Shown: positions 2,518 to 31,613, counted from the first letter of the stretch. The stretch is 32,000 bases of DNA from Trichodesmium erythraeum IMS101 (GCF_000014265.1 NC_008312.1:3810001-3842000); one strand, 5' to 3'. Numbers and translations are program-made. Notes: generated from the sequence alone by a model not told the origin.

Positions 2518-5500
2518 TTAGTTTTTTGGCAATTCATTTTTGAGTCGCTCTCGAAAATCTTCTATAGTCAATTTTAACCCTTCTTCAAGAAAAACAGTTG
2601 GCTCCCAACCCAAATATTTTTTCCCACGAGTAATATCTGGTTGTCGTTGTTTTGGATCATCTTGTGGTAGAGGTTTATATATTATCTCTGTACCTGGGTT
2701 AACCATTGTTTGAATTTTCTGAGCTAATTCTAATATTGTATATTCTCTTGGGTTTCCCAAGTTAACTGGCCCGATAAAATCCTGATTCATTAACCGAATA
2801 AACCCTTCTATCAAATCTGAAACATAACAAAAACTTCTGGTTTGGGAGCCATCACCATAGACTGTTAGAGGTATCCCTTTTAAGGCTTGTACAATAAAAT
2901 TGCTAACAACTCGACCATCATTTTCTAACATTCTAGGTCCATAAGTATTGTGAGCAAAAACATTGTAGCTTCCCCCTATAAAGTTCTCATAATTTGGCAC
3001 GGAGAAATCATACACATAATCATCTATTTCAAACTCCTCAATACTTTCTATTTTTCCCCAAGCAATATCACCTGTAGTTAGAGCTGATATTTTCTGCTCA
3101 ACCTTAGACAAATTATGAATATTTTTATCTTCTAATCCCTCTATTATTATTCGATAAATTTTGGCAATATCTTCCTCATTTACCTCTATTTCTGACACAT
3201 CTGCTACCAACCCAAATTTAGATAAAATCAATACTAATTTTTCAGCAACTAACTGACTATCAGTTTTAAATTCGAGATAGAAATTTAGTTGATTTTCTAG
3301 GTTATTCCCAGCAACGAATCCCTTCAAAAATCTAATTAATTGTTGTTCAGGTAGTTGTAAAATCCAATTAGGAATATCTTTTTCTTGATTCCCAAAATTT
3401 AATCCATATCCGATTAAATCAACCAGAATTTTAGACTTAATACTTATATATCCTGAATCATTAATTTCCGACTTATATTCAAAGATTCTTTCTATTAATT
3501 CTATAACTTTTTCTAGTTGACTAGGTTCCCCTTTCAACACAACTTCATTTTTGATCAAACTTCCCCGAGCTACATAAAAGCCTAAGAACCATAATAATTC
3601 TTCTACATTGTCTATCCAATTTTTAATTGCCTTTTTAGATAAATAGCAAACTTTATCTTTTTCCGATAGAGGAAGTTCTAAATATTTCCATAGATGCCAA
3701 GGAATTTGATTTTTTGCTTCATAAGTTTTCAATATCGAATAAAATTGACTAGGGCTTAAACTTTTTGCCAATAAATACTCCCTCATCTTATCTCCATACT
3801 TTTCAATATAAGAGATTGTATCTTCACTTTCTACATATATTTCTTCTTGAATTAATATTTTATCTGTAATGTGGAATGGCTCTAAAGGCTGTTCCAAAAA
3901 ACTGATATAACTAGGAATTCCTATTTCATCTCCTACCTTTATCTCATTTCCGAAAACTGCTTGAGGTTTATTATTTTCATTTCTCGTAAATAGACTATGA
4001 TCTTCTGTGATTTTTATTTGTTTACCCCAAGTAATTTTTATCTTAAAACCCTTCTTCTTGACATGATGTTTCCAAATTGCAGAAATTGGTTTAATTACCG
4101 TTTGATAATTTTCATCAAAACAAGGCACTGATACACTTGATATATCCCCATTAATTCTATCATAGCATTCTGCAAAAGTTTCATAATACAGTTTTTTAGC
4201 AATATAATAAAGTACCTTTTGATCTCCAGTCAAACTATTAAAAATTCTAGCCACTCTAATATCAACATTATTTTGGCGATGGTAATCAAAAGCTAAAGTT
4301 TCTGCTACTCGCTTCCCCTCATCGTAACATTGACCGCACCAAGCAGCACGCCCATTTCGTCTTACAAAAACCACATGGTTTGTGACATTAACACAATAAA
4401 CTTTTCCTACATAATGGAACCTTTCTGGCACAACTAAATTTGCATCCTCAGCAGGTCGAATATTAACTTGATAAAGGTCACGCCCCACTGCATGAGAAAC
4501 TACTGTAGCCGCATAACCACAACGAAGTGCTAACTCTTGTATATCATCAGCTAATCGCTTAGATTTACTATAATAAGTGTAATGATTTTTTTGTTCTGAA
4601 TTATCACCCATTATCAGTGCTTTAAATAGAATTAATAACTGTCGTTTTGATAGTTTCAATAATTCGCGAGGAATATATTTTTCACCAGACTTACCTAAAG
4701 GTAATAACATCTCAGCTAGCTGTTTACTACAAACCCGAAATTGATGTTTATCTGAATCAAATAAAATTTCACTAAAATTAAATCCTAAACGGCGTAAACA
4801 ACTAGCTATTTTCAAAGCTAATTCAGAGTTTTCTTGACCAATTAATATATTATAGTCTGCTACATAAGCATCATTTCCCCCTACTACTCGCAAGCTTTTT
4901 TTTACATCAACTCTACCTTCAGAAATGTAATAACCTAAAAATTCTAGCCAGTCATCCATAAAGATTTTTTCTACTTTTCTATGAGAATTTATAGGGCTTT
5001 TTCTTAATTCCAACCATTCTTCTTTTTCTCCCTCAAAATCTCCTCCAGTTAACACCTCTAAACTCTGCCAAAGTTTAGCTTCATCTGCCCTAATAAACTC
5101 TAAATTACCAGTTTTATTACGCACATACATCCAGTGATTAGGAGTCACACAAAAATCAAAGTTAGTATTAGCAAAACGGTACATTTCTCCAATATATGAT
5201 TGTACAATATACTCCTCAGGAATATGATATTCAACTTTACCTTCTGAGTTTAATGTTGCTACTTTAACTTCTGATTGTAGATTTGGAAAAGCTACCCAAC
5301 CTGCTTCAGTCAAAATTTCAGTTTTAGAATCAAAACAGGAGCGAATTCCAATACAATTAACATTACCTCTATACTCTTCTGTTTGAGGATGTACATCTGG
5401 GTCGCCATATACTTCAGATGTAGAAGCCAAAAAGAATTTTGCTTTTACTCTTTTGGCTAAACCTAACATATTTAATGTCCCCATTACATTTGTTTTAATT

Positions 5501-5769
5501 GTCTTGACGGGGTTGTACTGATAATGTATTGGACTAGCAGGACAAGCTAGATGATAAATTTGATCTACTTCTAACCTAATGGGTTCTGTAATATCGTGGC
5601 GAATTAACTCAAAGCTAGGATTATTTAACCAATTATAAATATTATGTTTATTGCCAGTGTAAAAATTATCAAGGCACAGGACTTCATGGCCTTGTTCTAT
5701 TAATCTATCAATAAGATGAGAGCCCAGAAAACCTGCGCCACCTGTTACTAATATTCTCATAATTTCCAC
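2518..5769 (-). CDS. UDP-glucuronate decarboxylase / NAD-dependent sugar-nucleotide epimerase-dehydratase (UXS-like) precursor carrying two inteins
   Basis: The extein segments aa 1-144, 481-511 and 942-1083 join to about 317 aa with SDR/UXS hallmarks: [24 protein letters not shown] (the YxxxK catalytic motif), RIFN|TYGPRM and GDGSQTRSF. The remaining 766 aa are two intein insertions. Met4 ([11 protein letters not shown]) is an alternative start. Confidence 0.92.
2947..4236 (-). mobile_element. Intein 2 (430 aa, precursor aa 512-941) with a degenerate LAGLIDADG domain
   Basis: Starts with Ser ([10 protein letters not shown]). Block B is [18 protein letters not shown]-like motifs are [14 protein letters not shown] and [14 protein letters not shown]. 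Block F/G is [24 protein letters not shown], followed by the +1 Thr of TYGPRM. Codons checked in DNA: Ser512 at 4234-4236, Asn941 at 2947-2949, Thr942 at 2944-2946. Confidence 0.9.
4330..5337 (-). mobile_element. Intein 1 (336 aa, precursor aa 145-480) with a LAGLIDADG homing-endonuclease domain
   Basis: Starts with Cys ([14 protein letters not shown], block A). Block B is [18 protein letters not shown]-like motifs are [14 protein letters not shown] and [14 protein letters not shown]. Block F/G is [24 protein letters not shown], followed by the +1 Cys of CYDEGKR. Codons checked in DNA: Cys145 at 5335-5337, Gln480 at 4330-4332, Cys481 at 4327-4329. Confidence 0.88.
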
Positions 5770-8609: not shown

Positions 8610-11600
8610 CAGAGATATTAATAAAAAACTTACTAAAAAAATAGAATAGGTGCAAAAACCGATGAGGAATGAGGAGCAGACGGTTACATTTAATCTTTTG
8701 TTTTTTAAAGATGTTATTTATTTGGGTAAGGAGGCGATCTATATTTAGTATCTTAGCTAGACCCTTGAGGTTAGGAGCTAAGTTATTTATCCATTGCTCT
8801 TTTTCCTGAAAATATCCTTTTAAATAGTTATTAGTCCAATTGATTAGAGTTTCTAAATCTTCAGCAGATGACTTTTCGACTATAGGATACTGACTATTAG
8901 CAGTAATAATAAACGTGATAATTTTGTCTCTGCTGATATACCACTCTATCATAGCAGTATCTTGTTCCATCAGGTTTTGAATATCCCTGAACAGAATAGG
9001 TTCTACTCTCTCAGTTAAGGTGAAACTGGGATCTATATCTTTAATTTGATTTAGTACCTCATCTAATTCCTGCCGTGATTTTTGTAATTCTTGCTGTAGG
9101 GGTTTTTGTGAAGTTTCAACAGTTGTTGTTCCTGGACTTCTGATTTACTTACCTACCTGATTTTGCTGAACGCTGTTTTATAACTATCTGTAATTGTCTT
9201 TCCAGCGATGGAATGTTTCGTCGCAGTCGATCTAGCTCCAGGAGAATTTCTTGAGGAATGTTACCTTTAGGATAGAGTTCGCGTTTGACAAGGAGTTCAA
9301 CGAGGGTGAGGGCTTTGGTGCGTTCTGCTGTTTCTATGGCTTTATACTATTGCTCTAAATTGATGTATATTTGCACCAGATTTTGATAAACTGATATTAC
9401 TTCTGCTATAATCTCTTGGTAGCGATCGTCGGTGGTTGCCCAACTGCAGCTGAGTTCCACTACAGTTATGGCTTTTTCATAGTTGTCGGCGGCAAGTTGC
9501 CAGTTTTGGTTGTCGAAATATAGGTCGCCTAAGTTGCAGGTAGTGATAAGATGTTGGATAGGGTCTTCTTCTTGGGTGCACACCTGCAAAGTTTGTTCGC
9601 ATGCAGCAATGGCTGCTTCTATATTTTCAGTTTTGTCTCCCCTTATTCTGTATAAAGTAGGCAATGCCGAGATTATCTTGAGTTCTTGCCCAGTCGATAG
9701 GGAAGTCAGTTTGGGTATACACCAGCAAAGCTTGTTGGCATGCAGCAATGGCAGCTTCAATATTTTCGGCTTGGTCTCCCCTTATTCTGTTAATGTAGGC
9801 AGCACCGAGATTATTTTGAGTTTGTGCCCAGTCGATAGGGAAGTCAGTTTGGGTGCGCACCAGCAAAGCTTGTTGGAATGCAGCAATGGCAGCTTCAATA
9901 TTTTCGGCTTGGTCTCCCCTTATTCTGTTAATGTAGGCAGCACCGAGATTATTTTGAGTTTGTGCCCATTCCATGGGGAAGTCAGTTTGGGTAAACACCA
10001 GCAAAGTTTGTTGCCATGCAGCAATGGCAGCTTCAATATTTTCGGCTTTGTCTCCCCTCATTCTGTTAATGTAGGCAGCACCGAGATTATTTTGAGTTTG
10101 TGCCCAGTCGATAGGGAATTCAGTTTGGGTGTACACCAGCAAAGCTTGTTGCCATGCAGCAATGGTGGCTTCAACATTTTCGGCTTGGTCTCCCCTCATT
10201 CTGTTAATGTAGACATTCCCGAGATTATATTGAGTTTGTGCCCATTCCATGGGGAAGTCAGTTTGGGTAAACACCAGCAAAGTTTGTTGCCATGCAGCAA
10301 TGGCAGCTTCAATATTTTCAGCTTGGTCTCCCCTCATTCTGTTAATGTAGACATTCCCGAGATTATATTGAGTTTGTGCCCAGTCGATAGGGAATTCAGT
10401 TTGGGTGTACACCAGCAAAGCTTGTTGCAATGCAGCAATGGTGGCTTCAACATTTTCGGCTTGGTCTCCCCTCATTCTGTTAATGTAGGCAGCACCGAGA
10501 TTATCTTGAGTTCTGGCCCAGTCGATAGGGAATTCAGTTTGGGTGTACACCAGCAAAGCTTGTTGCAATGCAGCAATGGCAGCTTCAATATTTTCGGCTT
10601 TGTCTCCCCTTATTCTGTTAATGTAGGCAGCACCGAGATTATTTTGAGTTCTGGCCCAGTCGATAGGGAATTCAGTTTGGGTGCGCACCAGCAAAGCTTG
10701 TTGCAATGCAGCAATGGCAGCTTCAATATTTTCGGCTTTGTCTCCCCTTATTCTGTAAAAGTAGGCAGCCCCGAGATTATATTGAGTTTGTGCCCAGTCG
10801 ATGGGGAAGTCAGTTTGGGTATACACCAGCAAAGTTTGTTGCCATGCAGCAATGGCAGCTTCAATATTTTCGGCTTTGTCTCCCCTTATTCTGTCTCTGT
10901 AGGCAAGGCCGAGATTATTTTGAATAGTTGCCCATTCCATGGGGAAGTCAGTTTGGGTGTGCACCAGCAAAGCTTGTTGGCATGCAGCAATGGCAGCTTC
11001 AATATTTTCGGCTTTGTCTCCCCTTATTCTGTAAAAGTAGGCAGCCCCGAGATTATCTTGAGTTCTGGCCCAGTCGATGGGGAAGTCAGTTTGGGTATAC
11101 ACCAGCAAAGCTTGTTGGCATGCAGCAATGGCAGCTTCAATATTTTCGGCTTTGTCTCCCCTCATTCTGTTAATGTAGGCAAGGCCGAGATTATCTTGAG
11201 TTCTGGCCCAGTCGATGGGGAAGTCAGTTTGGGTATACACCAGCAAAGCTTGTTGGCATGCAGCAATGGCAGCTTCAATATTTTCGGCTTTGTCTCCCCT
11301 CATTCTGTTAATGTAGGCAACGCCGAGATTATTTTGAGTCATTGCCCAGTCGATGGGGAAGTCAGTTTGGGTGCGCACCAGCAAAGCTTGTTCGTATGCA
11401 GCAATGGCAGCTTCAATATTTTCGGCTTTGTCTCCCCTCATTCTGTTAATGTAGGCAACGCCGAGATTATTTTGAGTCATTGCCCAGTCGATGGGGAAGT
11501 CAGTTTGGGTGCGCACCAGCAAAGCTTGTTCGTATGCAGCAATGGCAGCTTCAATATTTTCGGCTTTGTCTCCCCTCATTCTGTTAATGTAGGCAAGGCC

Positions 11601-13592
11601 GAGATTATATTGAGTTTTTGCCCAGTCGATAGGGAAGTCAGCTTGGGTGCGCACCAGCAAAGCTTGTTGGCATGCAGCAATGGCAGCTTCAATATTTTCG
11701 GCTTTGTCTCCCCTCATTCTGTTAATGTAGGCAAGGCCGAGATTATCTTGAGTTCTGGCCCAGTCGATGGGGAAGTCAGTTTGGGTATACACCAGCAAAG
11801 CTTGTTGCAATGCAGCAATGGCAGCTTCAATATTTTCAGCTTTGTCTCCCCTTATTCTATAAATGTAGGCAAGGCCGAGATTATTTTTAGCTTTTGCCCA
11901 GTCGATAGGGAATTCAGTTTGGGTGTACACCAGCAAAGCTTGTTGGCATGCAGCAATGGCAGCTTCAATATTTTCAGCTTGGTCTCCCCTTATTCTATAA
12001 ATGTAGGCAATGCCGAGATTATTTTGAGTCATTGCCCAGTCGATAGGGAAGTCAGTTTGGGTGCGCACCAGCAAAGCTTGTTGGAATGCAGCAATGGCAG
12101 CTTCAATATTTTCGGCCTTGTCTCCCCTCATTATGTTAATGTAGGCAGCACCGAGACTATTTTGAGTCATTGCCCAGTCGATAGGGAAGTCAGTTTGGGT
12201 GCGCACCAGCAAAGCTTGTTGGAATGCAGCAATGGCAGCTTCAATATTTTCGGCCTTGTCTCCCCTTATTCTGTAAAAGTAGGCAGCCCCGAGATTATAT
12301 TGAGTTTGTGCCCAGTCGATGGGGAATTCAGTTTGGGTGTGCACCAGCAAAGCTTGTTGGAATGCAGCAATGGCAGCTTCAATATTTTCGGCCTTGTCTC
12401 CCCTCATTCTGTTAATGTAGGCAGCACCGAGATTATATTGAGTTTGTGCCCAGTCGATGGGGAAGTCAGTTTGGGTATACACCAGCAAAGCTTGTTGCCA
12501 TGCAGCAATGGCAGCCTCAACATTTTCGGCTTGGTCTCCCCTCATTCTGTTAATGTAGGCAGCACCGAGATTATTTTCAGTTGCTGCCCATTCCATGGGG
12601 AAGTCAGTTTGGGTATACACCAGCAAAGCTTGTTGCCATGCAGCAATGGCAGCCTCAATATTTTCGGCTTTGTCTCCCCTTATTCTCTCAGTGTAGGCAG
12701 CGCCGAGACTATTTTGAGCTTTTGCCCAGTCGATGGGGAAGTCAGTTTGGGTATACACCAGCAAAGCTTGTTGCCATGCAGCAATGGCAGCTTCAATATT
12801 TTCAGCTTGGTCTCCCCTTATTCTATAAATGTAGGCAATGCCGAGATTAATTTTAGCTCTTGCCCAGTTTATCGGGAAGTCAGTTTGGGTGAACACCAGC
12901 AAAGCTTGTTGTAATGCAGCAATGGCAGCTTCAATATTTTCGGCTTTGTCTCCCCTTATTCTGTTAATGTAGGCAGCGCCGAGATTATTTTGAGTTTGTG
13001 CCCAATTTTCCCGTTGACTATCAGAGGTAAAGACTTTTAGCATTACTTCATAACCTGCAATACTAATTTCCATTTTGTTTGTTTTGTTACCCAGAGGAAA
13101 TTGCTGAATGCGGTTACTGAAAATACCAATAGATATAGCTATATCTTCTGCTACATCCGCCTCCACTTCAGAAAATTTAGCAGTCGCCCAGTTTCGCAAT
13201 ATATCAGCAAAGCTATCATCAAGTTTATCTAAGTTTTGCTGTAGGAGTGGGTAGACAACTTTCGAGTCACCCTTGCTTTCTGCAGTTGCCTCCAATACCT
13301 CTTCTAAGAAATTCAAATATTCTGCCGATGAGTAATGAGTTGAGGGAGAAAATTCTGAAGTTTCTAGTAACTCTACAAGCTGACTCCTGAGATGGCGTAA
13401 AAAATTAGCAGCGTTTTGAGCATTTTCGTCATCATTTTCTGCCAGTTGTTGTGCACAAAGTTCCATTATTTCGAGTAACCCTTCATCTACCAACTCTTGG
13501 TTCGTTTGGAGGATTTTTTCTACCTCACTGCCAGGGGAATTTAGCAGTTGGTCGATGAGGTTGATGTATGCTTCTTTGCGTTTGTTGTCCAT
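8610..13592 (-). pseudogene. TPR-repeat / CHAT-domain protein gene, disrupted and 3'-truncated
   Basis: ORF 9627-13592 holds an N-terminal helical domain plus 24 units of a 46-aa TPR-like repeat. The coding continues in other frames. A 25th diverged repeat and linker run to the TAG at 9347-9349. The same frame then continues (YKAIETAERTKALTLVELLVKRELYPKG...LERQLQ) to a TAA at 9149-9151. A third frame is open from 9144 to 8491 (EVLNQIKDIDPSFTLTERVEPILFRDIQNLMEQDTAMIEWYISRDKIITFIIT...NRLLLIPHRFLHLF), which is typical of the entry into a CHAT domain. The catalytic part of CHAT is absent. Confidence 0.75.
9540..13010 (-). repeat. Tandem array of about 25 units of 138 bp (46 aa), coding, TPR-like
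   Basis: Unit consensus is INRMRGDKAENIEAAIAAxQQALLVYTQTDFPIDWAxTQxNLGxAY. The landmark gcagcaatggcagcttcaatattttc recurs every 138 bp. Units 11281-11418 and 11419-11556 are identical base for base. Confidence 0.95.
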
Positions 13593-15470: not shown

Positions 15471-15820
15471 TAAATTATTCATACTTAATATTTGTCAAAA
15501 ACATTGTAGTGTTTATGTTATGCAAAATGTAGGTTTTAATGGTCAACGTGAAATAAATAAATCTGTGAGGTATAAAACAACTTATTTATTTAGGACTTAA
15601 AGCACCACAAGGTATTATCCTGATGACTACAGACACCAAGACAATCTAAATCCTAACCTCATGGGTAAGCCCTGTTAGTATTTATTGTCCATTATGCCCT
15701 GGAAACAGTTAACTATCAATTGCTTAACCACCAATTTTGATTACTATTTTCTATATTTTTAATAACCTTTTTTTATGCTAATGGACTTTTCCTATGTTTC
15801 TTAACAAAAATTAATATTCT

Positions 15821-15832
15821 AATTATTGATAA
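15821..15832 (+). promoter_or_regulatory. Candidate Fur-like iron box, copy 2
   Basis: aattattgataa within taattattgataaaaattctgattt, about 220 bp upstream of the ATG at 16052. Confidence 0.2.
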
Positions 15833-16051
15833 AAATTCTGATTTATGTTGAAATAAAATTATTGAAAATAAAAGTCAATATAGTAGTCTAGTTTTAGCTG
15901 TGTATAAAAGGTTCTAAAATCAAAAAAAGGTTCATATAAAAGGAATCTAAGATTAAAGCTTAATGCTCTTATTAAGATTCTTTATTAATTGTAGAGGACT
16001 ACTATTGATACTTTTTAAGTCAATATCCTTCAGATTGAGGATATAATTTAT

Positions 16052-17158
16052 ATGCAAACATTAGACAATGAAAACAGAAACACAGTTGAAAAGCCTGAAT
16101 CTACTAACAGCAGAGGAATCTTCTGGATACCATTATGGCGATCGCTAGGCTGGTCTTTTGAAGCAACAGAAGATGAAGGCGCTCCACTGCTAAGAGGGAA
16201 TATCAGGTTCAAAGACCTATCCGGGCAATTATTGGGAGCCCACGTAGCACATGCTGGCTTGATAGTGCTATGGGCAGGTGCAATGACCTTGTTTGAACTA
16301 TCCCACCTTGATCCTAGCTTACCAATGTATGAGCAGAATCTAATTTTACTGCCCCATCTAGCAACATTAGGTATTGGTATAAAAGCAGGTGGGGAAGTAA
16401 TTGACACCTATCCTTACTATGTTATCGGCATGCTGCATCTCATCAGCTCTGCTGTTTTGGGTGCAGGAGGTATTTATCATGCCGTTTTAGGTCCAAAAAA
16501 GCTTGATCCAAAAGGCTTTGGCTACAACTGGGAAGATGGCAATAAGATGACAACAATTCTAGGTATCCATCTAGTGTTGTTAGGACTTGGAGCAGCACTA
16601 TTAGTGATAAAAGCAACAGCTTTAGGCGGTATTTATGATCCACTAGTAGAAAAGGTACGACTAGTACAGCCAAACCTAAATCCTGTCAGAATTTTCGGCT
16701 ATCTATTTGGCTATAGCCCTAATGGCTGGACGATCACTGGTATGGCTAGCGTCGATAATCTCGAAGACGTTATCGGTGGTCATGTCTGGGTAAGCCTACT
16801 TTGTATTGTTGGCGGTCTATTTCACATTGTCTCCAAGCCTACAAGTTGGGCAAAAAAGATACTAATATGGTCGGGAGAAGCTTACTTATCTTATAGTTTG
16901 GGAGCACTAGCGATCGCAGGCTTCAGTGTAGCTGTATTCGTCTCCACAAACGAAATTGTTTATCCTAGCATATTTTATGGCCCTATTGGGGGTAACTATG
17001 CCCGGGTTAGTCTAGCCGGTGTTCATGCTACATTAGGTTTTCTAGCTTTACTAGGACATTTATGGCACGCCAACCGAGCTCGTGCTGCTAAACGTGGCGT
17101 ATCTTATGGAACCTTCTTTAACTATATAGCTCTAAGGGCTCAAGTATCTACAACTTAA
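16052..17158 (+). CDS. IsiA/Pcb-type chlorophyll-binding protein (CP43-like, lacks the large lumenal loop), copy 1 with extended termini
   Basis: Conserved CP43/IsiA blocks: [89 protein letters not shown] and [10 protein letters not shown]. At 368 aa it is about 100 aa shorter than PsbC. The N-terminal extension of about 45 aa is unusual. Confidence 0.9.
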
Positions 17159-17538
17159 TAGCTGAAAGTGCAGAAAGTGCAATAAGCGAAAAGGTTATAA
17201 AAAATGTGTAAGTATGCCAAAGCACACTTCTATATAGCTAATACCATTTTACTGAAGTCATAGGTTCATGCATTCATGCATGAATACTTTAAAATTTCAA
17301 AACTTTGACGCGCTCAATAATTTGAGAGAATTATTTGACACTTAAAATTAGAAACTATTTGTGACATCTTTAAAATGAAAGTGAATTAGTATAAGAAGCT
17401 CACACCTAAACCTATGCTGCACGAGCAAAAAGTAGAACTTCCCTCGTTAGTATAATCTAGTTTCAGCTATTCCATAAATACTAACCTTTGTAGTTAAACC
17501 AATAAATTCGATGATCTTAAACAAGGAGAAAAATCGCG

Positions 17539-18570
17539 ATGACTGTCGCCACTGATGATAACGTGCAAATTCCTTGGCGAGCAGGTAATGCTCGGCTTGT
17601 TAACCTATCAGGAAAACTATTGGGCGCTCATGTAGCCCATGCTGGGTTAATTGTACTTTGGGCTGGTTCTATTACCTTATCTGAAGTCGGGAACTTTGAT
17701 CCGTCTTTACCAATGTACGAACAAGGATTAATTGTAATACCAAATCTAGCTCGTTTAGGACTTGGAGTTAGTGAAGGGGGTGCGGTTGTAGATACCTATC
17801 CCTATTTTGTAATTGGGGTATTGCATTTAATTAGTTCGGCGTTTTTAGGAGCTGGTGGTATTTTCCACGCTCTCAAAGGCCCAGAAAAACTAGAAGAAAA
17901 ATTTTCCTTTTTTGGTTATAGGTGGGATGATCCAGGCAAAATGACAACTATCCTGGGTATCCATCTCGTATTGTTGGGATTTGGTGCTTTGTTGCTTGTA
18001 GCAAAAGCAATGGCATATGGTGGATTATACGATCCAGTCATTCAGAATGTGCGGGTAATTTACGATCCAACTTTGAACCCCACAACCATTTTCGGCTACT
18101 TATTTGGTACACAAGGGCGTTTCTGGCTAGCTGGTGTCAACTCTTTAGAAGATGTAGTAGGTGGTCATATATGGATTGGTGCTATATGCATTGTGGGTGG
18201 TATCTGGCATATGAGAACCGTACCATTTAATTGGGCAAAAGGGTTATTTGTATGGTCAGGAGAAGCCTATCTATCTTATAGCATTGGAGCAGTAAGTTTA
18301 ATGGCATTTATAGCCACACTATTTGTATCTGTTAACTCCCTAGTATTTCCTACAGAATTTTACGGACCCACCTTAACTCTAGTCTTTGATCGCTTTCCTG
18401 TATTTGTTAGTTCTGATGGAGCCTTAACTGCAAGGGTATGGTTAGCTAATGCCCACTTCTGGTTAGGCTTTTTCTTCCTACAAGGACACATATTCCATGC
18501 CTTACGAGCAGCAGGATATAGCTTTATCGAAGGCAGAGTCATTAATTCTACAAGAGGTCAAGTAAGTTAG
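17539..18570 (+). CDS. IsiA/Pcb-type chlorophyll-binding protein, copy 2
   Basis: 343 aa with the same conserved blocks ([32 protein letters not shown]..., [36 protein letters not shown]). GGAGAA lies 9-14 nt upstream of the ATG. Confidence 0.92.
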
Positions 18571-18572
18571 TT

Positions 18573-20141
18573 ATGAGTGTAACTCAATCAACAAATCCAT
18601 TAAGGTTTTTAGGATTTTCCACAGACAATAATGTTGATGTTACGAACTATGTTGGTAATTCCCAAGAACCCTATTCCTGGTGGGCAGGTAATTTTCGCTT
18701 TGTTGACCTATCTGGGAAATTATTAGGCGCTCACATTGCCCATGCCGGCTTAATTGTACTCTGGGCCGGTGCTATGACTCTATTTGAGTTATCCAGATTC
18801 GACCCTAGTTTACCTATGTACAACCAGGGGCTAATTTTGCTTCCCCACATGGCTACTCTGGGTTTAGGAGTTGGAGCAAATGGGGAAATTATCGATACCT
18901 ATCCTTATTTTGCTATTGGTGTTGTTCACCTAGTTAGTTCAGCAATTTTAGGAGCTGGTGGGATTTACCATGCCGTACTTGGACCTGAGAAACTCGACGA
19001 AAAAGGATTTGGCTATCAGTGGAATGATGGTAACAAAATGACTACTATTCTTGGCATTCATCTAGTACTACTAGGGATTGGAGCATTGATGCTGGTAGTC
19101 AAAGCCGTTTATGGTAGTGGTTTGTACGATCCGGCGATCGCCAATGTACGAGTGATTACTGAACCAACTCTGAATCCACAAACTATCTTCGGGTACCTGG
19201 TAGGTATCACTCCTGATGGCTGGACATTGAAGGGAATGGCTGCAGTCAATTCTTTAGAAGATGTAGTAGGCGGTCATATATGGATTGGCGTCATCTGCAT
19301 TTTAGGAGGTTTGTGGCATATTAATACTGCCCCTACTAAATGGGCTAAAGGGTTATTTGTTTGGTCCGGAGAAGCATATCTTGCCTACAGTCAGGCAGCT
19401 CTAGCTTACATGGGCTTTTTCGCAGCTTACTTTGTCTGGGTAAATGATACAGTTTATCCCTCAGTATTTTATGGTCCTGTGGGAGTGACTAACGTTGATG
19501 GAACTATTACTCCTCGTACCTGGTTAATGTTGTTCCAACTTATTTTTGCCTGTCTGCTACTGGCGGGTCACTTTTGGCATGGCCTCAGATCCAGAGCGAT
19601 CGCTAGTGGATTTGTCTTCAGTAGTCTGAAATTCAATCCCGGTGCTCTCTATGGAGACGCTCAATTCAATAACGAATCCCTAGTTACAGGTATTGTGCAG
19701 CCGTACCAAAACAACCCCCAGTTGGGTAACCTGGCAACCCCAATTAACTCCAGTCAGCTAACTCTAACTTGGGTCAGAAACTTGCCAATTTATCGCAATG
19801 GTTTATCTCCCATTGCACGAGGGTTAGAAATTGGCATGGCTCATGGATACCTGTTATTAGGACCGTTCTTGAAACTCGGACCATTGCGCAATACTGACCA
19901 AGCTCTTTTAGCTGGAGGTGGTAGTGCATCAGGATTAGTAGTAATTTTAAGTATCTGTCTGTTCGTTTATGGGATGGCAGTGTTTCAAGGTTCAAGTAAG
20001 CCAGTGGGTGTTTTACCAGAAAACCTACAAACTTATGGGCATTGGAGCATGTTTACATCTGGTTTCTTGATAGGCGGAATAGGTGGTGTAATTTTTGCCT
20101 GCTTTATTCTGTTAGAAATTGGCCGAGCAGGAATTGTTTGA
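18573..20141 (+). CDS. IsiA/Pcb-type chlorophyll-binding protein fused to a C-terminal PsaL-like domain
   Basis: aa 35-345 are CP43/IsiA-like. aa 374-522 align with PSI subunit PsaL ([57 protein letters not shown]...[22 protein letters not shown]). The ATG lies 2 nt after the stop of copy 2, which indicates an operon. Confidence 0.93.
19692..20138 (+). other. PsaL-like domain of the fusion protein
   Basis: The PsaL signature motifs listed above, with three predicted helices. A linker of about 30 aa ([25 protein letters not shown]) separates it from helix VI of the CP43-like part. Confidence 0.88.
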
Positions 20142-21433
20142 GCAAAGAAAACATCAGCTAGAAGACAGGAAGCAGTAAGGGTTTATCCTGACACCGGAGG
20201 TACAATATCCTGACGAGCAAACATAGCAGGGTTTGAAATGAAATTTCCCCAAGCTCACTCCACTTCAGTGGCTCCCGTTCAGGAGGGCTCACCTTCTGCG
20301 TTTTGTCTCTTATCTCCCGCCTTTTCAATATATTTCTAAGAGTTCCTATGAGGTATGATATTAAATCTGGGTAGAAAAGCAAGCTTGTCACATCGCCTAA
20401 TTCCTTATTTAGTAACAGTTGTAACTTTAAAAAATACCTTCTCACACTAGACGGGTTTGGTATGAATTGTATCTATACTACCGGAATTGATATTATTTCT
20501 GATATCAAATCCCTTGAGTTTAGAGTAGTATAATTTCTTTGCTACTCATACAATGTGTATAGACAAATTGCTATTTAACCCCCCTCTACGATAAAATATG
20601 GACTCTTTTCTTTAATAGAGTTGTTTGGTGTTGGAAAAATTAAAATCCTGAAAAGCTTACTATATAAGTTTTTCAGGATTTTTTTATCAAAAATACCCTT
20701 AAACTTGGACCTGTTTTGGGTTTTAGCCATGTTTTTAATTCCCAACAACTCTATTATATGCCGACCAATTGCTAAGACGGTACTTGGAGTTATATTTGGA
20801 ATTGGACTGACTCATCTCTAATTTTGTGTAGGCTACCTAGCTACTTTATGGTGTCATTAGCTACAAGTTTCATTCACCAGTTCCTGTTAACATTAGTTTG
20901 TTATCAAAATTATCCTTAGCAAATAAAGGACTAAATGTTGAAATGCGAAATGTGTGTTCATTCGTCGGAGATAAACAAACAACTCTGTGTTAAGAAAGGT
21001 CAAAAGAAAGCTAATTTTTCTGTTACAAGTCTTTTCGCAATACTTATAAAACTTTATATATACCCAATTAGTTTTGGTATAAGATAAGTATTAGGACTTC
21101 TTGCTTTAATATTTAATCACATTAAAATCCTTGCAAAAGTGAAGGGTTAACAGTTATTAAAGATCCTGGGGAGCGCTGAAATGGTGTCAACTAGTTTCAA
21201 AACGAGAATTACTGAAAAGAAAGTAAATTTTTATCTAAATGTCTGCAGAAGACCCGTGCTCTCCCGTACGGAAGTTTCCGGATAAATACCAATCAATCTT
21301 GCGGTTTGAAAAATATCTGTTATGGTGTAAACATTGAAAATTAGGCAGCAAATGAATGTTGCTCTAATTGTAGTCATATAATAATAAAATTACCTTTAAA
21401 TATTAGAAAGTGGAATTGCCTTGAATATCGTAA

Positions 21434-21661
21434 TTACCATGACAGGGATATAAACCCAAGTATAAACATTTTGGCTGCAGGACTCGCAGTGTCAGTCTGG
21501 GTCGCGGTCTTTATCCCCGAAGAGAAAAAATCTTTGAAGGCGGGTGCTATGAAGCAGAAAACCCCTAACAGCAATAAAACGGGAATCCCTCGCTGTCTAA
21601 AATATAGCAGCGTCGGGAGGATGTCAACTGATGGCAGTATAAATAATAAGCCACTAGCCAA
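21434..21661 (-). CDS. Possible small two-helix membrane protein (hypothetical)
   Basis: The 75-aa ORF has two hydrophobic stretches (LLFILPSVDILPTLLY and IPVLLLLGVFCFIAPAF). GC content is locally higher than in the flanking AT-rich spacer. An overlapping plus-strand ORF (21471-21677) makes the strand call uncertain. Confidence 0.25.
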   Translation of the reverse strand: MASGLLFILPSVDILPTLLYFRQRGIPVLLLLGVFCFIAPAFKDFFSSGIKTATQTDTASPAAKMFILGFISLSW

Positions 21662-21729
21662 AATTGAGCAGTTTTAGTTTTCATTTTTCGCTAACATTAA
21701 GTTATTTTCCAACAACTCTACTAACTAAA

Positions 21730-22440
21730 ATGACAATTCCTTTACTTTACTATCCACTCTCTAGTCAAAATCATCGGGTTCAAGGATTTGAGGTTCCAGG
21801 AGATGAACATCCCAGACAGCAAACTCTGGACAAGCTACCAACTGGTACAGAGATAGATGAAATCATCGGGGCAGCCTATCGGCAAATTTTCAACGAGCAG
21901 CAAACAATTACAGCTCATCAACAGCTTTATTTAGAGTCTCAACTTCGCAATGGTCAGATTACAATTAAGGATTTCATGCGAGGTTTACTGCTTTCAGACT
22001 CATTCCGGCGACTGATTTATGATACTAATAGTAACTATCGTTGTGTTGAACTATGTATTCAAAGAGTTTTAGGACGTCCCGTCTATAACAATAAAGAGAA
22101 ACTTAGTTGGTCTATTATATTGGCAACGAAAGGACTCCAAGGTTTTGTTAATGCCTTGTTAGACAGCGAAGAATATGAAAAACACTTTGGCTATAATTGT
22201 GTTCCTTACCAACGTCGGCGGATTTTGCCCCAGCGCATTAAAGGGGAGTTACCCTTTGCTCGGATGGCTCGTTATGATAGTAATTATCTCAAACAGTTAT
22301 ATCGAACAGGGCAACTACGGAAGTTTAGTGAAGTAGTTGATGAAAGTGTTTATGTTTATCGCAAAGCCCTCATCTTTTTGTCTATATTATCTTTAGCAGT
22401 CTTATCTATTACTCTGGTTTTAGTTTTTTCAGCTAAATAA
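21730..22440 (+). CDS. cpcL: Phycobilisome rod(-core) linker of the CpcG/CpcL type with a C-terminal hydrophobic anchor
   Basis: MTIPLLYYPLSSQNHRVQGFEV matches the CpcG N-terminus. PBS-linker domain motifs are AAYRQIF, ESQLRNGQITIKDFMRGLLLSDSFRR, NSNYRCVELCIQRVLGRP, ATKGLQGFVNALLDSEEY and GYNCVPYQRRR. The last roughly 24 aa (ALIFLSILSLAVLSITLVLVFSAK) form a transmembrane helix, as in CpcG2/CpcL. Start moved to the ATG at 21730 (Met23 of the track ORF). Confidence 0.85.
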   Translation: MTIPLLYYPLSSQNHRVQGFEVPGDEHPRQQTLDKLPTGTEIDEIIGAAYRQIFNEQQTITAHQQLYLESQLRNGQITIKDFMRGLLLSDSFRRLIYDTNSNYRCVELCIQRVLGRPVYNNKEKLSWSIILATKGLQGFVNALLDSEEYEKHFGYNCVPYQRRRILPQRIKGELPFARMARYDSNYLKQLYRTGQLRKFSEVVDESVYVYRKALIFLSILSLAVLSITLVLVFSAK

Positions 22441-27646: not shown

Positions 27647-30600
27647 CTAAGCACTAAAATATCTAGCAACAGGATGATAGATAACAAAAGCAGTAGTTGT
27701 TTGCTCTGGATAAAGCTGTTCGCTCTCATCAATTGATACCCCAATGCGATCAGCTCCCAATAATTGCAACTGTGGCACTTGATCGATAACTACCGGACAA
27801 GCTGGATAGCCAAAACTATACCGAGAACCCTGATACCTTTGAGCTAATATATCGCGAATGTTATCTGGCTCTAAATCCCCATAACCTAACTCCCGCCGAA
27901 TCCTGGCGTGACTCCATTCTGCTAAGGCTTCCGCCAACTGCACCGCCATACCGTGGAAATAGAGATAATTGGTGTACTCGTTCCCTTGATAAAGTTCCTG
28001 TGCTTTCTGAGTAGCAATTTCTCCCATAGTTACTGCCTGCATAGGCAAAACATCAAATTGATCATGCTCAAGGGGGCGGATGAAATCAGCAATACACAGG
28101 CGACGCATGGATTTCTGACGGGGGAATGTCCAAGTGACAAACGGGGTTGCTGTTGTAGGTGTTAAGCCCTGCTCAATAACACTCGGATCGTAAACATGAA
28201 CGGAATTGCCGATGGCTGCACAAGGGAAATAACCATAAACTAGAGTCGGCTCCAACCATTGTTCAGTGCGAACTTTTTGCTTCCATTCTTCCAAGATCGG
28301 ATAAACCTTTGATGCCAGGAACCAATCATATTCCTCACGAGGTTGGCCTTTCGGTTTACGGAATTGCCATTGACCAGCGAACAGTGCCTGTAAATCCATG
28401 TACCAGAACAGTTCTTCTAGCTTTAGATCACCACTCTGAAGAATTTTCGTGCCCCAGAAAGGTGGTGCAGGACGTTCGATATCAATCGCTACGTCTGTCG
28501 AACGTTTAGTATCAATTACAGTGGGTTTATTGGGTTTCTTTCCATTACCATTGACTTCTCCATCGGATTTCTCCCCATCACCGTTGAGTTCTCGTTCTAA
28601 ATCTTTGATTGCTTTGCGTCCCCTTTGGTTAAACTGAGCAAACTCCCCTGTAAAGCCTTCGGTATCGACCCAGCAATCCTTATCTTTGGCGGGCATCAGC
28701 CGATCCATAAAGGTCAAATCTGCAAAAGCATCTTTACCGTAAATGACCTGCCCTTGGTAAGTATCTTGACAATCACCATAAACAAATTTTGGTGTGAGTG
28801 CAGCACCACCTAAAATCACTGGTACTGTAATACCTTTAGCATTAAATGCTGCAAGATTTTCTTTCATGAATGCTGTAGATTTCACCAGCAAGCCACTCAT
28901 AGCAATACAATCAGGTTTATGCTGCTCATAAGCTTCGACAATTGCCTCAATTGCTTGTTTAATGCCCAGATTGATGACCTTATAGCCATTATTGGTCAAT
29001 ATGATATCCACCAGATTTTTCCCGATATCATGGACATCGCCTTTAACCGTAGCAATCAGGAATTTACCTTTACCGCGATCTTCGTCCTCTCCTTCTATTT
29101 TTTCCATGTAGGGTTCAAGGAAAGCTACCGCAGATTTCATTGTTTCGGCTGACTGCAACACGAAGGGTAATTGCATTTGACCAGAGCCAAACAGTTCCCC
29201 TACAACCTTCATCCCATCCAGCAAGAAAGTATTGATAATCTCCAGGGCTTTATGACCGGCATCTAAAGCTACCTTTAACGCATCTTCCAATCCAATGCGC
29301 TCGCCATCAATAATATGTTGCTTCAAGCGTTGGTCGATGGGCAAATCTGCTAAGGAAGGGCCAGATCTAGCATCTTTTGCACTCACTCCCGCAAAAATTT
29401 CCGTTAGCTTCGTCAACGGATCGTAGGTGCAAATATCCCCTTCAAATTTGCGATTATCATAAATCAAATCGCAACAGATCTGTTGATGTTCTTCATCAAT
29501 CTTTGATAACGGTAAAATCTTGGCAGCCGAGACAATTGCCCCATCCATCCCTGCTTTCATCGCTTCATTGAGGAAGATCGAATTTAAGGTGATGCGAGTG
29601 GCTGGACTCAAGCCAAAAGAAATGTTAGAGACCCCTAACATAAAATGGACACCGGGCAGATTTTCCCGAATCAGTCGAATTGATTCGATCGTTGCTTTAG
29701 CATTTTCCCGATCCTCCTCAATTCCAGTTGAAATTGGTAGAGCTAAGGTATCATAGAAAATTTCATGGGGTGGAATTCCAAACTTGAGGGCATCCTTATA
29801 AGCCCGTTGGGCAATCTCAAATTTTTTCTTGGCAGTTCTAGCCATTCCCTCTTCATCGATACAGCCGATGACAACTCCTGCACCATATTCTTTGGCCAAT
29901 TCCAACACTTTAAAAAATCGCTCTTCTCCATCTTCATAGTTGGTGGAATTGAGCAAACATTTACCCCCAGCGACCTTAAGGCCTGCTTCCATTTTGGTCC
30001 ATTCGGTGGAGTCAAGCATCAGTGGGAGGGTCGTATTAGTCACCAGTCGCGATACCAGTTCTCGCATATCCCGTTCTCCATCACGCCCGACGTAATCCAC
30101 GTTTACATCTAGCATATGGGCGCCTTCTTTGACCTGGGATTTAGCGATCGCCAATAACCCATCCCAATCATCTTCATTCAAAAGCTTGCGGACTTTCTTA
30201 GAACCACTGGCATTTAATCGCTCGCCAACGATTAAAAAAGAATTATCCTGCTCATAGGTTTGGGCAGAATAAATGGAAGCTGCTGCTGGGGTATAGGAGA
30301 GAGGCGTTCTAACCTTACCCACAGCATTTTTTCGTACCGATCGCTCTTTTAGTGGGGTTTCTTCCACAGCATCGGCTAATGCTTGAATATGTGCTGGACG
30401 GGTACCGCAGCAGCCACCGACAATTTGAACTCCATACTGACCAATGAACTCAGACATGGACGTTTTAAATTCTAGCGGGGTCATTTTATAATGAGCCTGA
30501 CCGCCAATATTTTCTGGTAGCCCCGCATTGGGAATACAAGAAATGGGGAATGGTGAATTTTCTGATAGATATTTGATATGAGAGGTCATCAAATTTGGAC

Positions 30601-31321
30601 CTGTCGCACAATTTAGACCCAAAATATCAATGGGGAAAGGCTCCAGAATTGCTAACACCCCAGAGATATCTGTTCCCACCAACATAGTTCCCTGAATTTC
30701 CATGGTCACGGATACCATTAAGGGGAGTCTGGATCCTTTTTTGGCAAATACCGCCTCAAAGGCACTCAATGCTGCCTTAATTTGCAGAACATCTTGACAG
30801 GTTTCCACTATGAAAAGATCGGCTCCCCCGTCATAAAGACCTTCTGCTTGCACCATGAAGCTCGCTTTTAATTCATCATAGGTAATATGACCGAGGGTGG
30901 GTAGCTTGGTTCCTGGACCGATGGAACCTGCGACGAATCTAGGTTTTTCGGGACTCGTAAACTCATCCGCACAACTACGCGCCAATTCTGCTGCCTTTCT
31001 ACTTAGCTCGTAGGCGCGATCGGCTAGATTGTACTCGGCGAGGACTAAGGGGCTAGATCCAAAGCTATCAGTCTCGACAACATCTGCCCCTGCTGCCAGA
31101 AAATCACGATGGACTTTCGCCACTGCTTCTGGCTTCGTGACGACTAAATATTCATTACAACCTTCATATTCCGCTCCACCAAAATCCTCGGCGGTCAAGT
31201 TTTGAGATTGGATGTTAGTTCCCATCGCACCATCAAAGATCAGTACTGGGCGATCTGGACTCTGGAGCCGTTGGAGAAATGAAGTCTTTAACTGAGGTTT
31301 TGGAATTTCAACACTTAGCAT
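27647..31321 (-). CDS. metH: Cobalamin-dependent methionine synthase
   Basis: The 1224-aa protein has all modules in order: homocysteine S-methyltransferase domain ([11 protein letters not shown]), pterin-binding domain, B12-binding domain with GDVHDIGKN, and the C-terminal AdoMet activation domain. Confidence 0.96.
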
Positions 31322-31550
31322 AGGCGTAATGGTTATAGTTGGTCTCAGACTTCTCCTGCAACCTTTTTATTTTTTACCCCAAAGCAAGTCAAAGAATTGC
31401 AGATTGCATTCTCGCAGATTACAGATTTACCCCTACTTAAAAGACGGTGGCAAGGGAAGTGTAGATTGTAATTTTTTGGTTAATTGTTAATTTTTGAGGG
31501 TAGATTTTAGATTTACCAATGCTTGAACGCAAAGGAACCTTTATCTACTC

Positions 31551-31613
31551 AATCTCCAATCTCCAATCTCCAATCTCCAATCTCCAATCTCCAATCTCCA
31601 ATCTCCAATCTTC
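31551..31613. repeat. Heptanucleotide tandem repeat (AATCTCC x8 plus one imperfect unit)
   Basis: aatctcc is repeated 8 times perfectly from 31551 to 31606, followed by aatcttc. It lies about 230 bp upstream of the metH start codon. This is the STRR-like class of repeat known from filamentous cyanobacteria. Confidence 0.95.

Follow-up and report, generated by a model that had tools for sequence, protein, structure and literature searches.

The stretch of DNA analyzed in this study comprises 32,000 nucleotides (nt) of the Trichodesmium erythraeum IMS101 genome (GCF_000014265.1, NC_008312.1:3810001-3842000; hereafter the window, with positions counted from its first letter) and carries a cluster of four co-oriented genes on the + strand. 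Three of them encode IsiA-like chlorophyll-binding proteins (CBPs; genes 1-3, or g1-g3), the third being fused to PsaL, a subunit of photosystem I (PSI), and the fourth encodes a CpcL-type rod linker. We regard it as very likely that the cluster is an iron-starvation-inducible PSI antenna module, in which the g3 fusion would dock in the PsaL site with the g2 protein adjacent to it, the g1 protein would extend the antenna, and CpcL would supply a rod. The evidence comes from the gene content, domain architecture, orthology, synteny, and conservation of chlorophyll ligands of the window and its relatives. The cluster itself is already known, having been published as isiA2-isiA3-isiA4-cpcG2 (Tery_2483-2486) of T. 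erythraeum IMS101. What we add is incremental, namely a split of the related clusters into types A and B, a mapping of the nomenclature, the origin of g1, an insertion in the linker of the fusion, a conserved block upstream of g1, and the recognition of an IsrR match as an artefact. The genes and the parts of the fusion are as follows:

16052-17158, + strand: g1, IsiA-like chlorophyll-binding protein, 368 amino acids (aa); PF00421 at E 4e-67, TIGR03041 at 353 bits
17539-18570, + strand: g2, IsiA-like chlorophyll-binding protein, 343 aa; TIGR03041 at 415 bits
18573-20141, + strand: g3, open reading frame (ORF) of the CBP-PsaL fusion, 522 aa; TIGR03041 at 367 bits
18573-19622, + strand: CBP domain of g3 (aa 1-350); PF00421 at E 6e-75, aligned with aa 9-328 of Anabaena All4002
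19623-19688, + strand: linker of g3 (aa 351-372); conserved in type A, a gap in the alignment with All4002
19689-20141, + strand: PsaL domain of g3 (aa 373-522) and the stop codon; match to PF02605
21730-22440, + strand: cpcL-type (cpcG2-like) rod linker gene, 236 aa; PF00427 at E 2e-44

In the Pfam profile search, PF00421 was matched by g1, g2, and g3 with E-values ranging from 4e-67 to 6e-75, and all three passed the cutoff of 335 for TIGR03041, the NCBIfam model of the chlorophyll a/b binding light-harvesting protein. All of the 12 CP43 positions that serve as chlorophyll ligands in photosystem II (PSII) structures are kept in each of the three proteins, with changes limited to H91N in g2 and H430Q in g3, both of which are common in the respective clades. 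An earlier note on this DNA, made from the sequence alone, had recognized three IsiA/Pcb-like genes on the + strand, and the ORFs and the PF00421 matches confirm them at the same coordinates. It had also held that the genes are not recent duplicates, which agrees with the pairwise identities of their CBP domains (59.5-64.1%) and with the separate clade that each of them occupies in the phylogeny (see below), a check that the note had proposed. No flavodoxin (isiB) domain was found among the window ORFs of at least 100 aa, as the note had it, and the canonical isiAB arrangement, isiA followed by isiB, is absent from this locus. On the other hand, the note treated the set as a unit of three genes and missed the cpcL-type gene that makes it a cluster of four.

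The resemblance of g1-g3 to CP43 bears on whether they might serve PSII as Pcb-like or CP43-like antennae. Binding to PSII is known for some Pcb proteins. The three proteins score 360-416 bits against CP43 chains and 269-365 bits against canonical IsiA, the annotation of the IMS101 genome gives them as psbC homologues, and the chlorophyll a/b Pcb proteins of prochlorophytes have been grouped with IsiA in one family (PMC13464640). Nevertheless, their scores of 364-391 miss the cutoff of 603 for true CP43 (the psbC equivalog), and the large lumenal loop (E-loop) of CP43 is missing, the CBP domains being 343-368 aa in length against 455-473 aa in CP43 (typically ~460 aa) and CP43 residues ~325-398 being left unmatched in the alignment. 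The lack of this loop in the Trichodesmium proteins has also been stated elsewhere (PMC12090762). Furthermore, one of the proteins is fused to a PSI subunit, and the orthologues of g2 and g3 are bound to PSI in the structure 9zjt. We therefore consider a role at PSII very improbable.

The g3 protein was used as a query against one genome per species, which gave 79 loci, and ORFs were called in all of them and compared with the window proteins. The nearest loci were those of two Trichodesmium metagenome-assembled genomes (MAGs; 96% and 93%), followed by Dapis and Okeania at 90-94%. Two types of cluster were distinguished. Type A (L001-L041, ~40 species) has the order of a g1-like gene, a g2-like gene, a fusion of 519-526 aa, and a CpcL-like gene, and is found in Trichodesmium/Okeania/Dapis, Leptolyngbya PCC 6406, Nodosilinea, Halomicronema, marine Calothrix/Richelia, Brasilonema, and Egbenema; some of these loci possess a canonical-type IsiA and a short IsiA further downstream. 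Type B has the order of a g2-like gene and a fusion of 478-507 aa, and in most cases canonical IsiA and short IsiA come next; neither a g1-type gene nor an adjacent cpcL is present. The members of type B, which is the arrangement of Anabaena 7120, are Nodularia, Anabaenopsis, Tolypothrix, Chroococcidiopsis, Limnothrix, and Xenococcaceae. Altogether, ~70 fusion genes bear a near full-length PsaL domain.

Among the proteins of solved structure, the best relative of g3 is the Anabaena IsiA-PsaL protein All4002 (7y3f_1/9zjt), with 610 bits over both domains, and that of g2 is chain 2 of 9zjt (9zjt_2), with 508 bits, which by its length and copy number is All4003. For g1, the top match was All4002 through its CBP domain (387 bits), a score little higher than those of the CP43 chains. 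We reconstructed a neighbour-joining tree of 231 CBP domains (311 columns, Kimura distances, 100 bootstraps) with T. vulcanus CP43 as the outgroup; as a simple distance tree with one outgroup, it is less secure at the deep nodes. The fusions, including All4002, lie in a clade with a bootstrap value of 94, within which the type B fusions grouped with All4002 at 97. The 41 type A fusions formed a clade with a value of 100, as did the 36 sequences of the g1 clade, which come from type A loci only. These two clades were sisters with a value of 87, and the pair was sister to the type B fusions. The g2 clade includes All4003 with a value of 86. The canonical IsiA-like and the short IsiA-like sequences made separate clades, each with a value of 100, and the window proteins fell outside the canonical IsiA clade.

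The tree identifies g2 as the orthologue of Anabaena All4003. As the g1 clade is sister to the type A fusions and restricted to type A, we read g1 as a PsaL-less paralogue that arose from a duplication inside the fusion lineage once types A and B had separated. On the same phylogenetic ground, All4002 is co-orthologous to both g1 and g3, and g1 has no Anabaena orthologue of its own. The N-terminus of g1 is unusual, with LLRGN instead of WWAGN; across g1 and its orthologues, LL(R/G)GN replaces the WW(A/S)GN conserved in the other CBPs compared (16052-16200 in the window), and the clade has a conserved N-terminal segment of ~40 aa that the other clades examined lack. Five proteins of 343-357 aa without PsaL were also found inside the type B fusion clade (L072, L073, L075, L076, and L077, from Richelia/Calothrix and Scytonematopsis loci), forming a subclade of their own with a value of 100. 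This position suggests a secondary loss of PsaL in the type B lineage, independent of and parallel to the origin of g1 in type A. The orthology allows three clashing naming schemes to be reconciled: IsiA3 of Trichodesmium and Leptolyngbya JSC-1 is All4003 of Anabaena, and IsiA2 and IsiA4 of the former are together co-orthologous to All4002.

The PsaL part of g3 is nearly complete. PF02605 matched aa 375-514 over profile positions 2-146 of 150 with an E-value of 1.3e-55, and this part scored 160.6 bits against the PsaL part of All4002 and E-values of ~1e-43 to 1e-40 against free PsaL chains. The PsaL domain claimed for g3 by the earlier note is thus present. Its score lies under all of the NCBIfam equivalog cutoffs for free PsaL, as expected of a diverged, fused copy. 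The stop codon of g2 ends at 18570 and the ATG of g3 begins at 18573, so that the two genes are 2 nt apart, as had been noted. In 30 of 39 type A loci, the distance from the g2 stop to the start of the fusion is -4 to +3 nt. Such a tight junction fits translational coupling and an Anabaena-like 1:1 pairing of the two proteins.

The fusion could in principle be an artefact in which a sequencing error joined a CBP gene and a psaL gene. One uncultured MAG (L033, SRP128890_co1_5) does have the two parts split by TAG-ATG at the start of the linker. However, the ORF is continuous in the window, with no stop and no frameshift across 19599-19706, an interval that includes the positions (19600-19700) where the note had envisaged an interruption; a single ORF is seen in 40 of the 41 type A loci and in the type B loci; the amino acids of the linker are conserved across the clade; and the Anabaena protein has been seen as one chain. 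The artefact is thereby effectively refuted, and g3 is treated below as a genuine fusion. In L033, the in-frame TAG followed by ATG lies at 9045-9050, among the opening residues of the type A linker, where the junction reads …FVFS* MKFSPDALYGD…, dividing the fusion into a CBP of 349 aa and a PsaL with linker of 171 aa; the split may be natural, with the two parts unfused, or it may stem from a strain polymorphism or a sequencing error. A second outlier is the fusion gene of 924 aa in Okeania hirsuta PAB10Feb10-1 (L008, 8001-10775), which past the second PsaL helix goes back to CBP helix I and continues with a second CBP-linker-PsaL copy, either as a real partial tandem duplication or as an assembly artefact. 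The range of '283 to 924' residues quoted for IsiA proteins (PMC13637498) coincides with the lengths of two outlier ORFs at this locus.

The type A fusions differ from those of type B in three respects, namely an N-terminal extension of ~20 aa that is absent in type B, an insertion of 20-22 aa in the linker, and a distinct C-terminus. The linker of g3 measures ~22-24 aa (aa 351-372/374); the earlier note was right as to its presence and overestimated its length at about 30 aa. The insertion is kept in sequence and length across the type A fusions and is absent in type B and Anabaena, with 45 aa between HxxR and GNL in the former, as against 23-25 aa in type B. Since it is conserved in sequence, the insertion probably forms a defined structure and not just a flexible connection.

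The corresponding genes of T. erythraeum have been described before, which overtakes the suggestion of the earlier note that the set was still worth characterising. Using comparative genomics, Bench et al. (2013; PMC5945289) found three adjacent isiA variants in T. erythraeum and in large-cell Crocosphaera, one of them with a C-terminal PsaL domain, and a Clade 4 variant then without homologues in other organisms; all4002 and all4003 of Anabaena were stated to correspond to the other two variants. From its position and the missing Anabaena counterpart, we infer that Clade 4 is the g1 type. RNA-seq under iron limitation, which the earlier note had proposed as a check, followed in 2025 (PMC12090762), with Tery_2483/2484/2485 named isiA2/isiA3/isiA4 and Tery_2486 named cpcG2; by position, g1 is isiA2/Tery_2483, g2 is isiA3/Tery_2484, and the linker gene is Tery_2486. 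On iron addition, the log2 fold changes were -7.9, -8.2, and -8.3 for isiA2-4 and -4.8 for cpcG, the largest response of the transcriptome. The canonical isiA1-isiB pair lies elsewhere in the genome, at Tery_1667/1666 (PMC12090762). The fusions, as PsbC-PsaL hybrids, had been classed as CBPV by Voss et al. (2013; PMC3610870), who include T. erythraeum IMS101 in their list of carriers, in line with the separate CBP family mentioned in the earlier note. CBPV denotes the CBP-PsaL fusion (IsiA4 in JSC-1 and Trichodesmium, IsiA2 in Anabaena), and g3 has both the architecture and the clade membership of this class.

In iron-starved Leptolyngbya JSC-1, the genes isiA2-isiA3-isiA4-cpcG2-isiA5 are reportedly induced ~500-fold, a result that citing papers attribute to Shen, Gan, and Bryant in 2016, whose study reportedly covered both transcripts and proteins. 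The JSC-1 cluster and Tery_2483-2486 (PMC12090762) share with the window the gene order, PsaL on the third gene, cpcG2/cpcL downstream, and the absence of an adjacent isiB. The fifth gene of JSC-1, isiA5, is absent from the window, but some type A loci have it (L010-12, L016, L017, and L021). The Anabaena PCC 7120 cluster all4003-all4002-all4001-all4000, known for its PSI1-IsiA6/7 supercomplex (PDB 7y3f, 9zjt), shares the adjacent pair of an All4003-type CBP and an IsiA-PsaL fusion. Both this and the Trichodesmium-type cluster are iron-induced and neither has an adjacent isiB. In contrast to the latter, the Anabaena cluster possesses no g1-type paralogue and no adjacent cpcL, with canonical and short IsiA downstream, and the type A fusion is ~45 aa longer than that of Anabaena (identity of the fusions, ~56-67%). 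Canonical isiAB, with its PSI3-IsiA18 ring (Synechocystis 6803, Synechococcus 7942; 6nwa, 6kif, 6k33), has in common with the window proteins the superfamily, the induction by iron stress, and the role as a PSI antenna. The window proteins differ in falling into other clades, in their bit scores given above, and in having no isiB; by analogy with Anabaena, the type A complex would be expected on a PSI monomer, whereas canonical IsiA forms a ring around the trimer.

In the Anabaena structures, the fusion replaces PsaL in a PSI monomer with All4003 adjacent to it (PMC9938196, PMC13464640), and in the 2.2 Å structure of PSI1-IsiA7, All4003 is a single-copy subunit beside the fusion (PMC13464640). 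The PSI-monomer/IsiA structure that the earlier note mentioned for Anabaena is thus real. The note had also proposed that the PsaL part occupies the PsaL site and so promotes a monomeric PSI carrying an antenna, which gains support, by homology, from All4002. Spectroscopy showed efficient energy transfer from IsiA-PsaL to PSI (PMC13637498). A different proposal would be that the g1-g3 products mainly make up a pool independent of PSI, serving photoprotection or chlorophyll storage as quenching aggregates of IsiA alone. PSI-free IsiA rings or aggregates, proposed to be photoprotective, have been described for canonical IsiA (PMC13464640, PMC13637498), and the transcript levels in low iron are very high (PMC12090762). 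Yet a PsaL domain attached in ~70 fusion genes is hard to explain without docking to PSI, and the Anabaena homologue sits in the PsaL site and transfers energy efficiently; the two roles are also compatible with each other. We judge a predominantly PSI-independent pool to be unlikely and continue to favour the PSI antenna.

The fourth gene was listed as an ORF from TTG at 21664, and its true start is the conserved ATG at 21730 (MTIPLLYYPLSSQNHRVQ). The protein has PF00427 at its N-terminus and, at the opposite end, a hydrophobic transmembrane helix at ~aa 213-233 (nt 22366-22428), and the best PDB match with a single domain was Synechocystis CpcL (8hfq_n; 250 bits), with CpcG at 203 bits. Nearly all type A loci have a cpcL-type gene downstream of the fusion, and the hydrophobic helix at the C-terminus was found in 42 of 42 cluster-linked homologues; the legend of a neighbourhood figure in PMC13637498 already lists cpcG. 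Judging from the domain and from the helix in place of the core-binding tail of CpcG, the window gene fits the CpcL class, and association with PSI is predicted. With known CpcL proteins (Synechocystis 6803 CpcG2, Anabaena 7120 CpcG3; 8hfq, PMC13037873), it shares PF00427 together with a transmembrane helix at the C-terminus, although the region of the helix does not align with the solved CpcLs, the alignments ending at ~aa 198-203. It differs from them in its position inside an iron-stress IsiA cluster and in being induced by low iron in T. erythraeum (PMC12090762).

The regulatory anatomy of the cluster was examined by alignment of 10 Trichodesmium/Dapis/Okeania loci, together with promoter and terminator scans. 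The elements retained are listed below:

15806-15895, + strand: conserved non-coding block, candidate promoter/operator, ~160-245 nt upstream of g1
16000-16051, + strand: conserved 5' leader with a GAGGA ribosome-binding site, from the same 10-locus alignment
17159-17538, + strand: g1-g2 spacer, 380 nt; only the last ~45 nt, with an AAGGAG ribosome-binding site, are conserved
20280-20298, + strand: terminator-like hairpin with a T-rich tail, candidate partial terminator by consensus match, ~140 nt past the g3 stop

The block at 15806-15895 is near-invariant among the aligned loci, and the sequence further upstream could not be aligned. It follows the pattern TTATTGATAAAAATT.TGATTTATGTTGAAATAAA.TTATTGA.AATAAAA..CAA.ATAGTAGT and is AT-rich with TGATAA-like repeats; its core, TTATTGATAAAAATT, has one exact copy in the window, with near matches scattered. 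Among the relatives, the g1-g2 spacer is 124-652 nt long and conserved only at its 3' end, where the ribosome-binding site lies. The g3-cpcL spacer ranges in length from 97 nt up to 1.5 kb, and the one in the window is conserved with Trichodesmium/Okeania only in the ~190 nt past g3 and in a short stretch. Footprinting for internal promoters found no conserved element in the g1-g2 spacer, apart from the ribosome-binding site, or before cpcL. Because the only conserved non-coding block thus lies upstream of g1, with none before g2 or cpcL, the most economical reading would be a single promoter under iron control upstream of g1, from which transcription continues in attenuated form into cpcL. 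Such attenuation agrees with a cpcG transcript ~8-fold below that of isiA4 in low iron (PMC12090762). The hairpin at 20280-20298 was kept from the scan only as a weak candidate.

Several further features of the non-coding DNA were noted. A hairpin with an 8-bp stem at 17210-17229, ~50 nt past the g1 stop, is also present in the closest Trichodesmium locus (L038) and could act in the processing or stability of the RNA, setting how much of g1 is made relative to g2 and g3. The g3-cpcL spacer (20142-21729) is 1.6 kb long here, as in other Trichodesmium/Okeania, and ~100-340 nt in most other type A loci. Searching it for a hidden gene or mobile element gave no convincing ORF and no Rfam match at the gathering threshold; a short inverted repeat lies at 20642-20682. 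Antisense matches to the Rfam family IsrR (RF01419), at 118-126 bits, were obtained at 16529-16703, 17923-18100, and 19020-19197 on the - strand. However, a full-length RF01419 match at the same relative position was found in 12 of 12 CBP paralogues of three other loci (L016, L037, and L044), including genes far from canonical isiA, at scores well above the gathering score. As the match occurs in every paralogue and tracks their coding conservation, we reject it as evidence for an antisense RNA and make no statement on the existence of such an RNA.

Combining these observations with the Anabaena structures, we propose the following sequence of events. Iron limitation would induce the cluster, with the three chlorophyll-binding genes probably co-transcribed from a promoter in the block upstream of g1 and g2 and g3 probably coupled in translation. 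The PsaL domain of g3 would take the position of PsaL in a PSI monomer, as in Anabaena, which would place the six-helix domain on the oligomerisation face, block the approach of the next PSI monomer, and keep PSI monomeric with a covalently attached antenna. The g2 protein would bind beside g3, as All4003 does in Anabaena, and the g1 protein would most likely extend the hetero-oligomer at the PsaL pole. The belt may be completed by canonical IsiA encoded elsewhere in the genome, and CpcL, more weakly induced, would probably attach a phycobiliprotein rod to the remodelled PSI.

Some observations weigh against this scheme. The geometry of a type A complex could differ from that in Anabaena, given the N-terminal extension, the linker insertion, and the different C-terminus of the type A fusions compared with the solved protein; g1 has no counterpart in the solved Anabaena complex. 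The promoter scan gave fewer promoter-like sites than shuffled controls, and the promoter and terminator were assigned from conservation and consensus matches only. The block at 15806-15895 scores 13 of 19 against the 19-mer Fur consensus of E. coli, like many AT-rich sites of the window. We do not claim a Fur box in this block, as its score is no better than background; the nine genes for which Fur boxes have been listed do not include those of this cluster (PMC12090762). Finally, the housekeeping CpcL of Anabaena has its helix where two monomers meet within the PSI tetramer, in contact with PsaA on one flank and with PsaB/PsaM on the opposite one (PMC13037873), and this inter-monomer site would not exist on a monomeric PSI with IsiA-PsaL. 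A different docking mode for the type A CpcL is plausible for this reason. We can therefore envisage, albeit tentatively and as the less probable outcome, that the type A module builds a PSI-monomer supercomplex unlike PSI1-IsiA7, in which g1 takes a place that belongs to another subunit in Anabaena and CpcL anchors the rod at a new site, located either on the PSI monomer or on the belt of IsiA proteins, as the Anabaena site is not available there. The Anabaena-type PSI antenna remains our preferred reading.

Elsewhere in the window, a 138-bp unit is repeated 24.9 times with 91% identity at 9572-13004, inside a TPR_10/TPR_12 protein of 1321 aa (ORF 9627-13592, - strand). The array also keeps an ORF of 1143 aa open on the + strand (9483-12914), which is almost certainly a shadow ORF, and the GC content over it reaches 0.46, against ~0.30-0.38 in the flanks. 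At 2518-5769 (- strand), a 1083-aa NAD-dependent epimerase/dehydratase is split by an intein with a LAGLIDADG endonuclease (Pfam Intein_splicing, LAGLIDADG_3). A perfect heptanucleotide repeat, CAATCTC x 8.9, occupies 31550-31611, just upstream of a metH-like gene (27647-31321, - strand).

Among marine nitrogen fixers, Trichodesmium is a major one and suffers from a chronic shortage of iron; the cluster is its strongest transcriptional response to iron, as already published. Type A covers Trichodesmium, Okeania, marine Calothrix/Richelia, and several Leptolyngbya-like genera. In view of the docking site of CpcL in Anabaena, the role of the co-encoded CpcL poses a well-defined structural question. 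If the type A module does build a supercomplex with CpcL at a new site, it would be a hybrid antenna of chlorophyll and phycobilin that marine nitrogen fixers of global importance make specifically when starved of iron.

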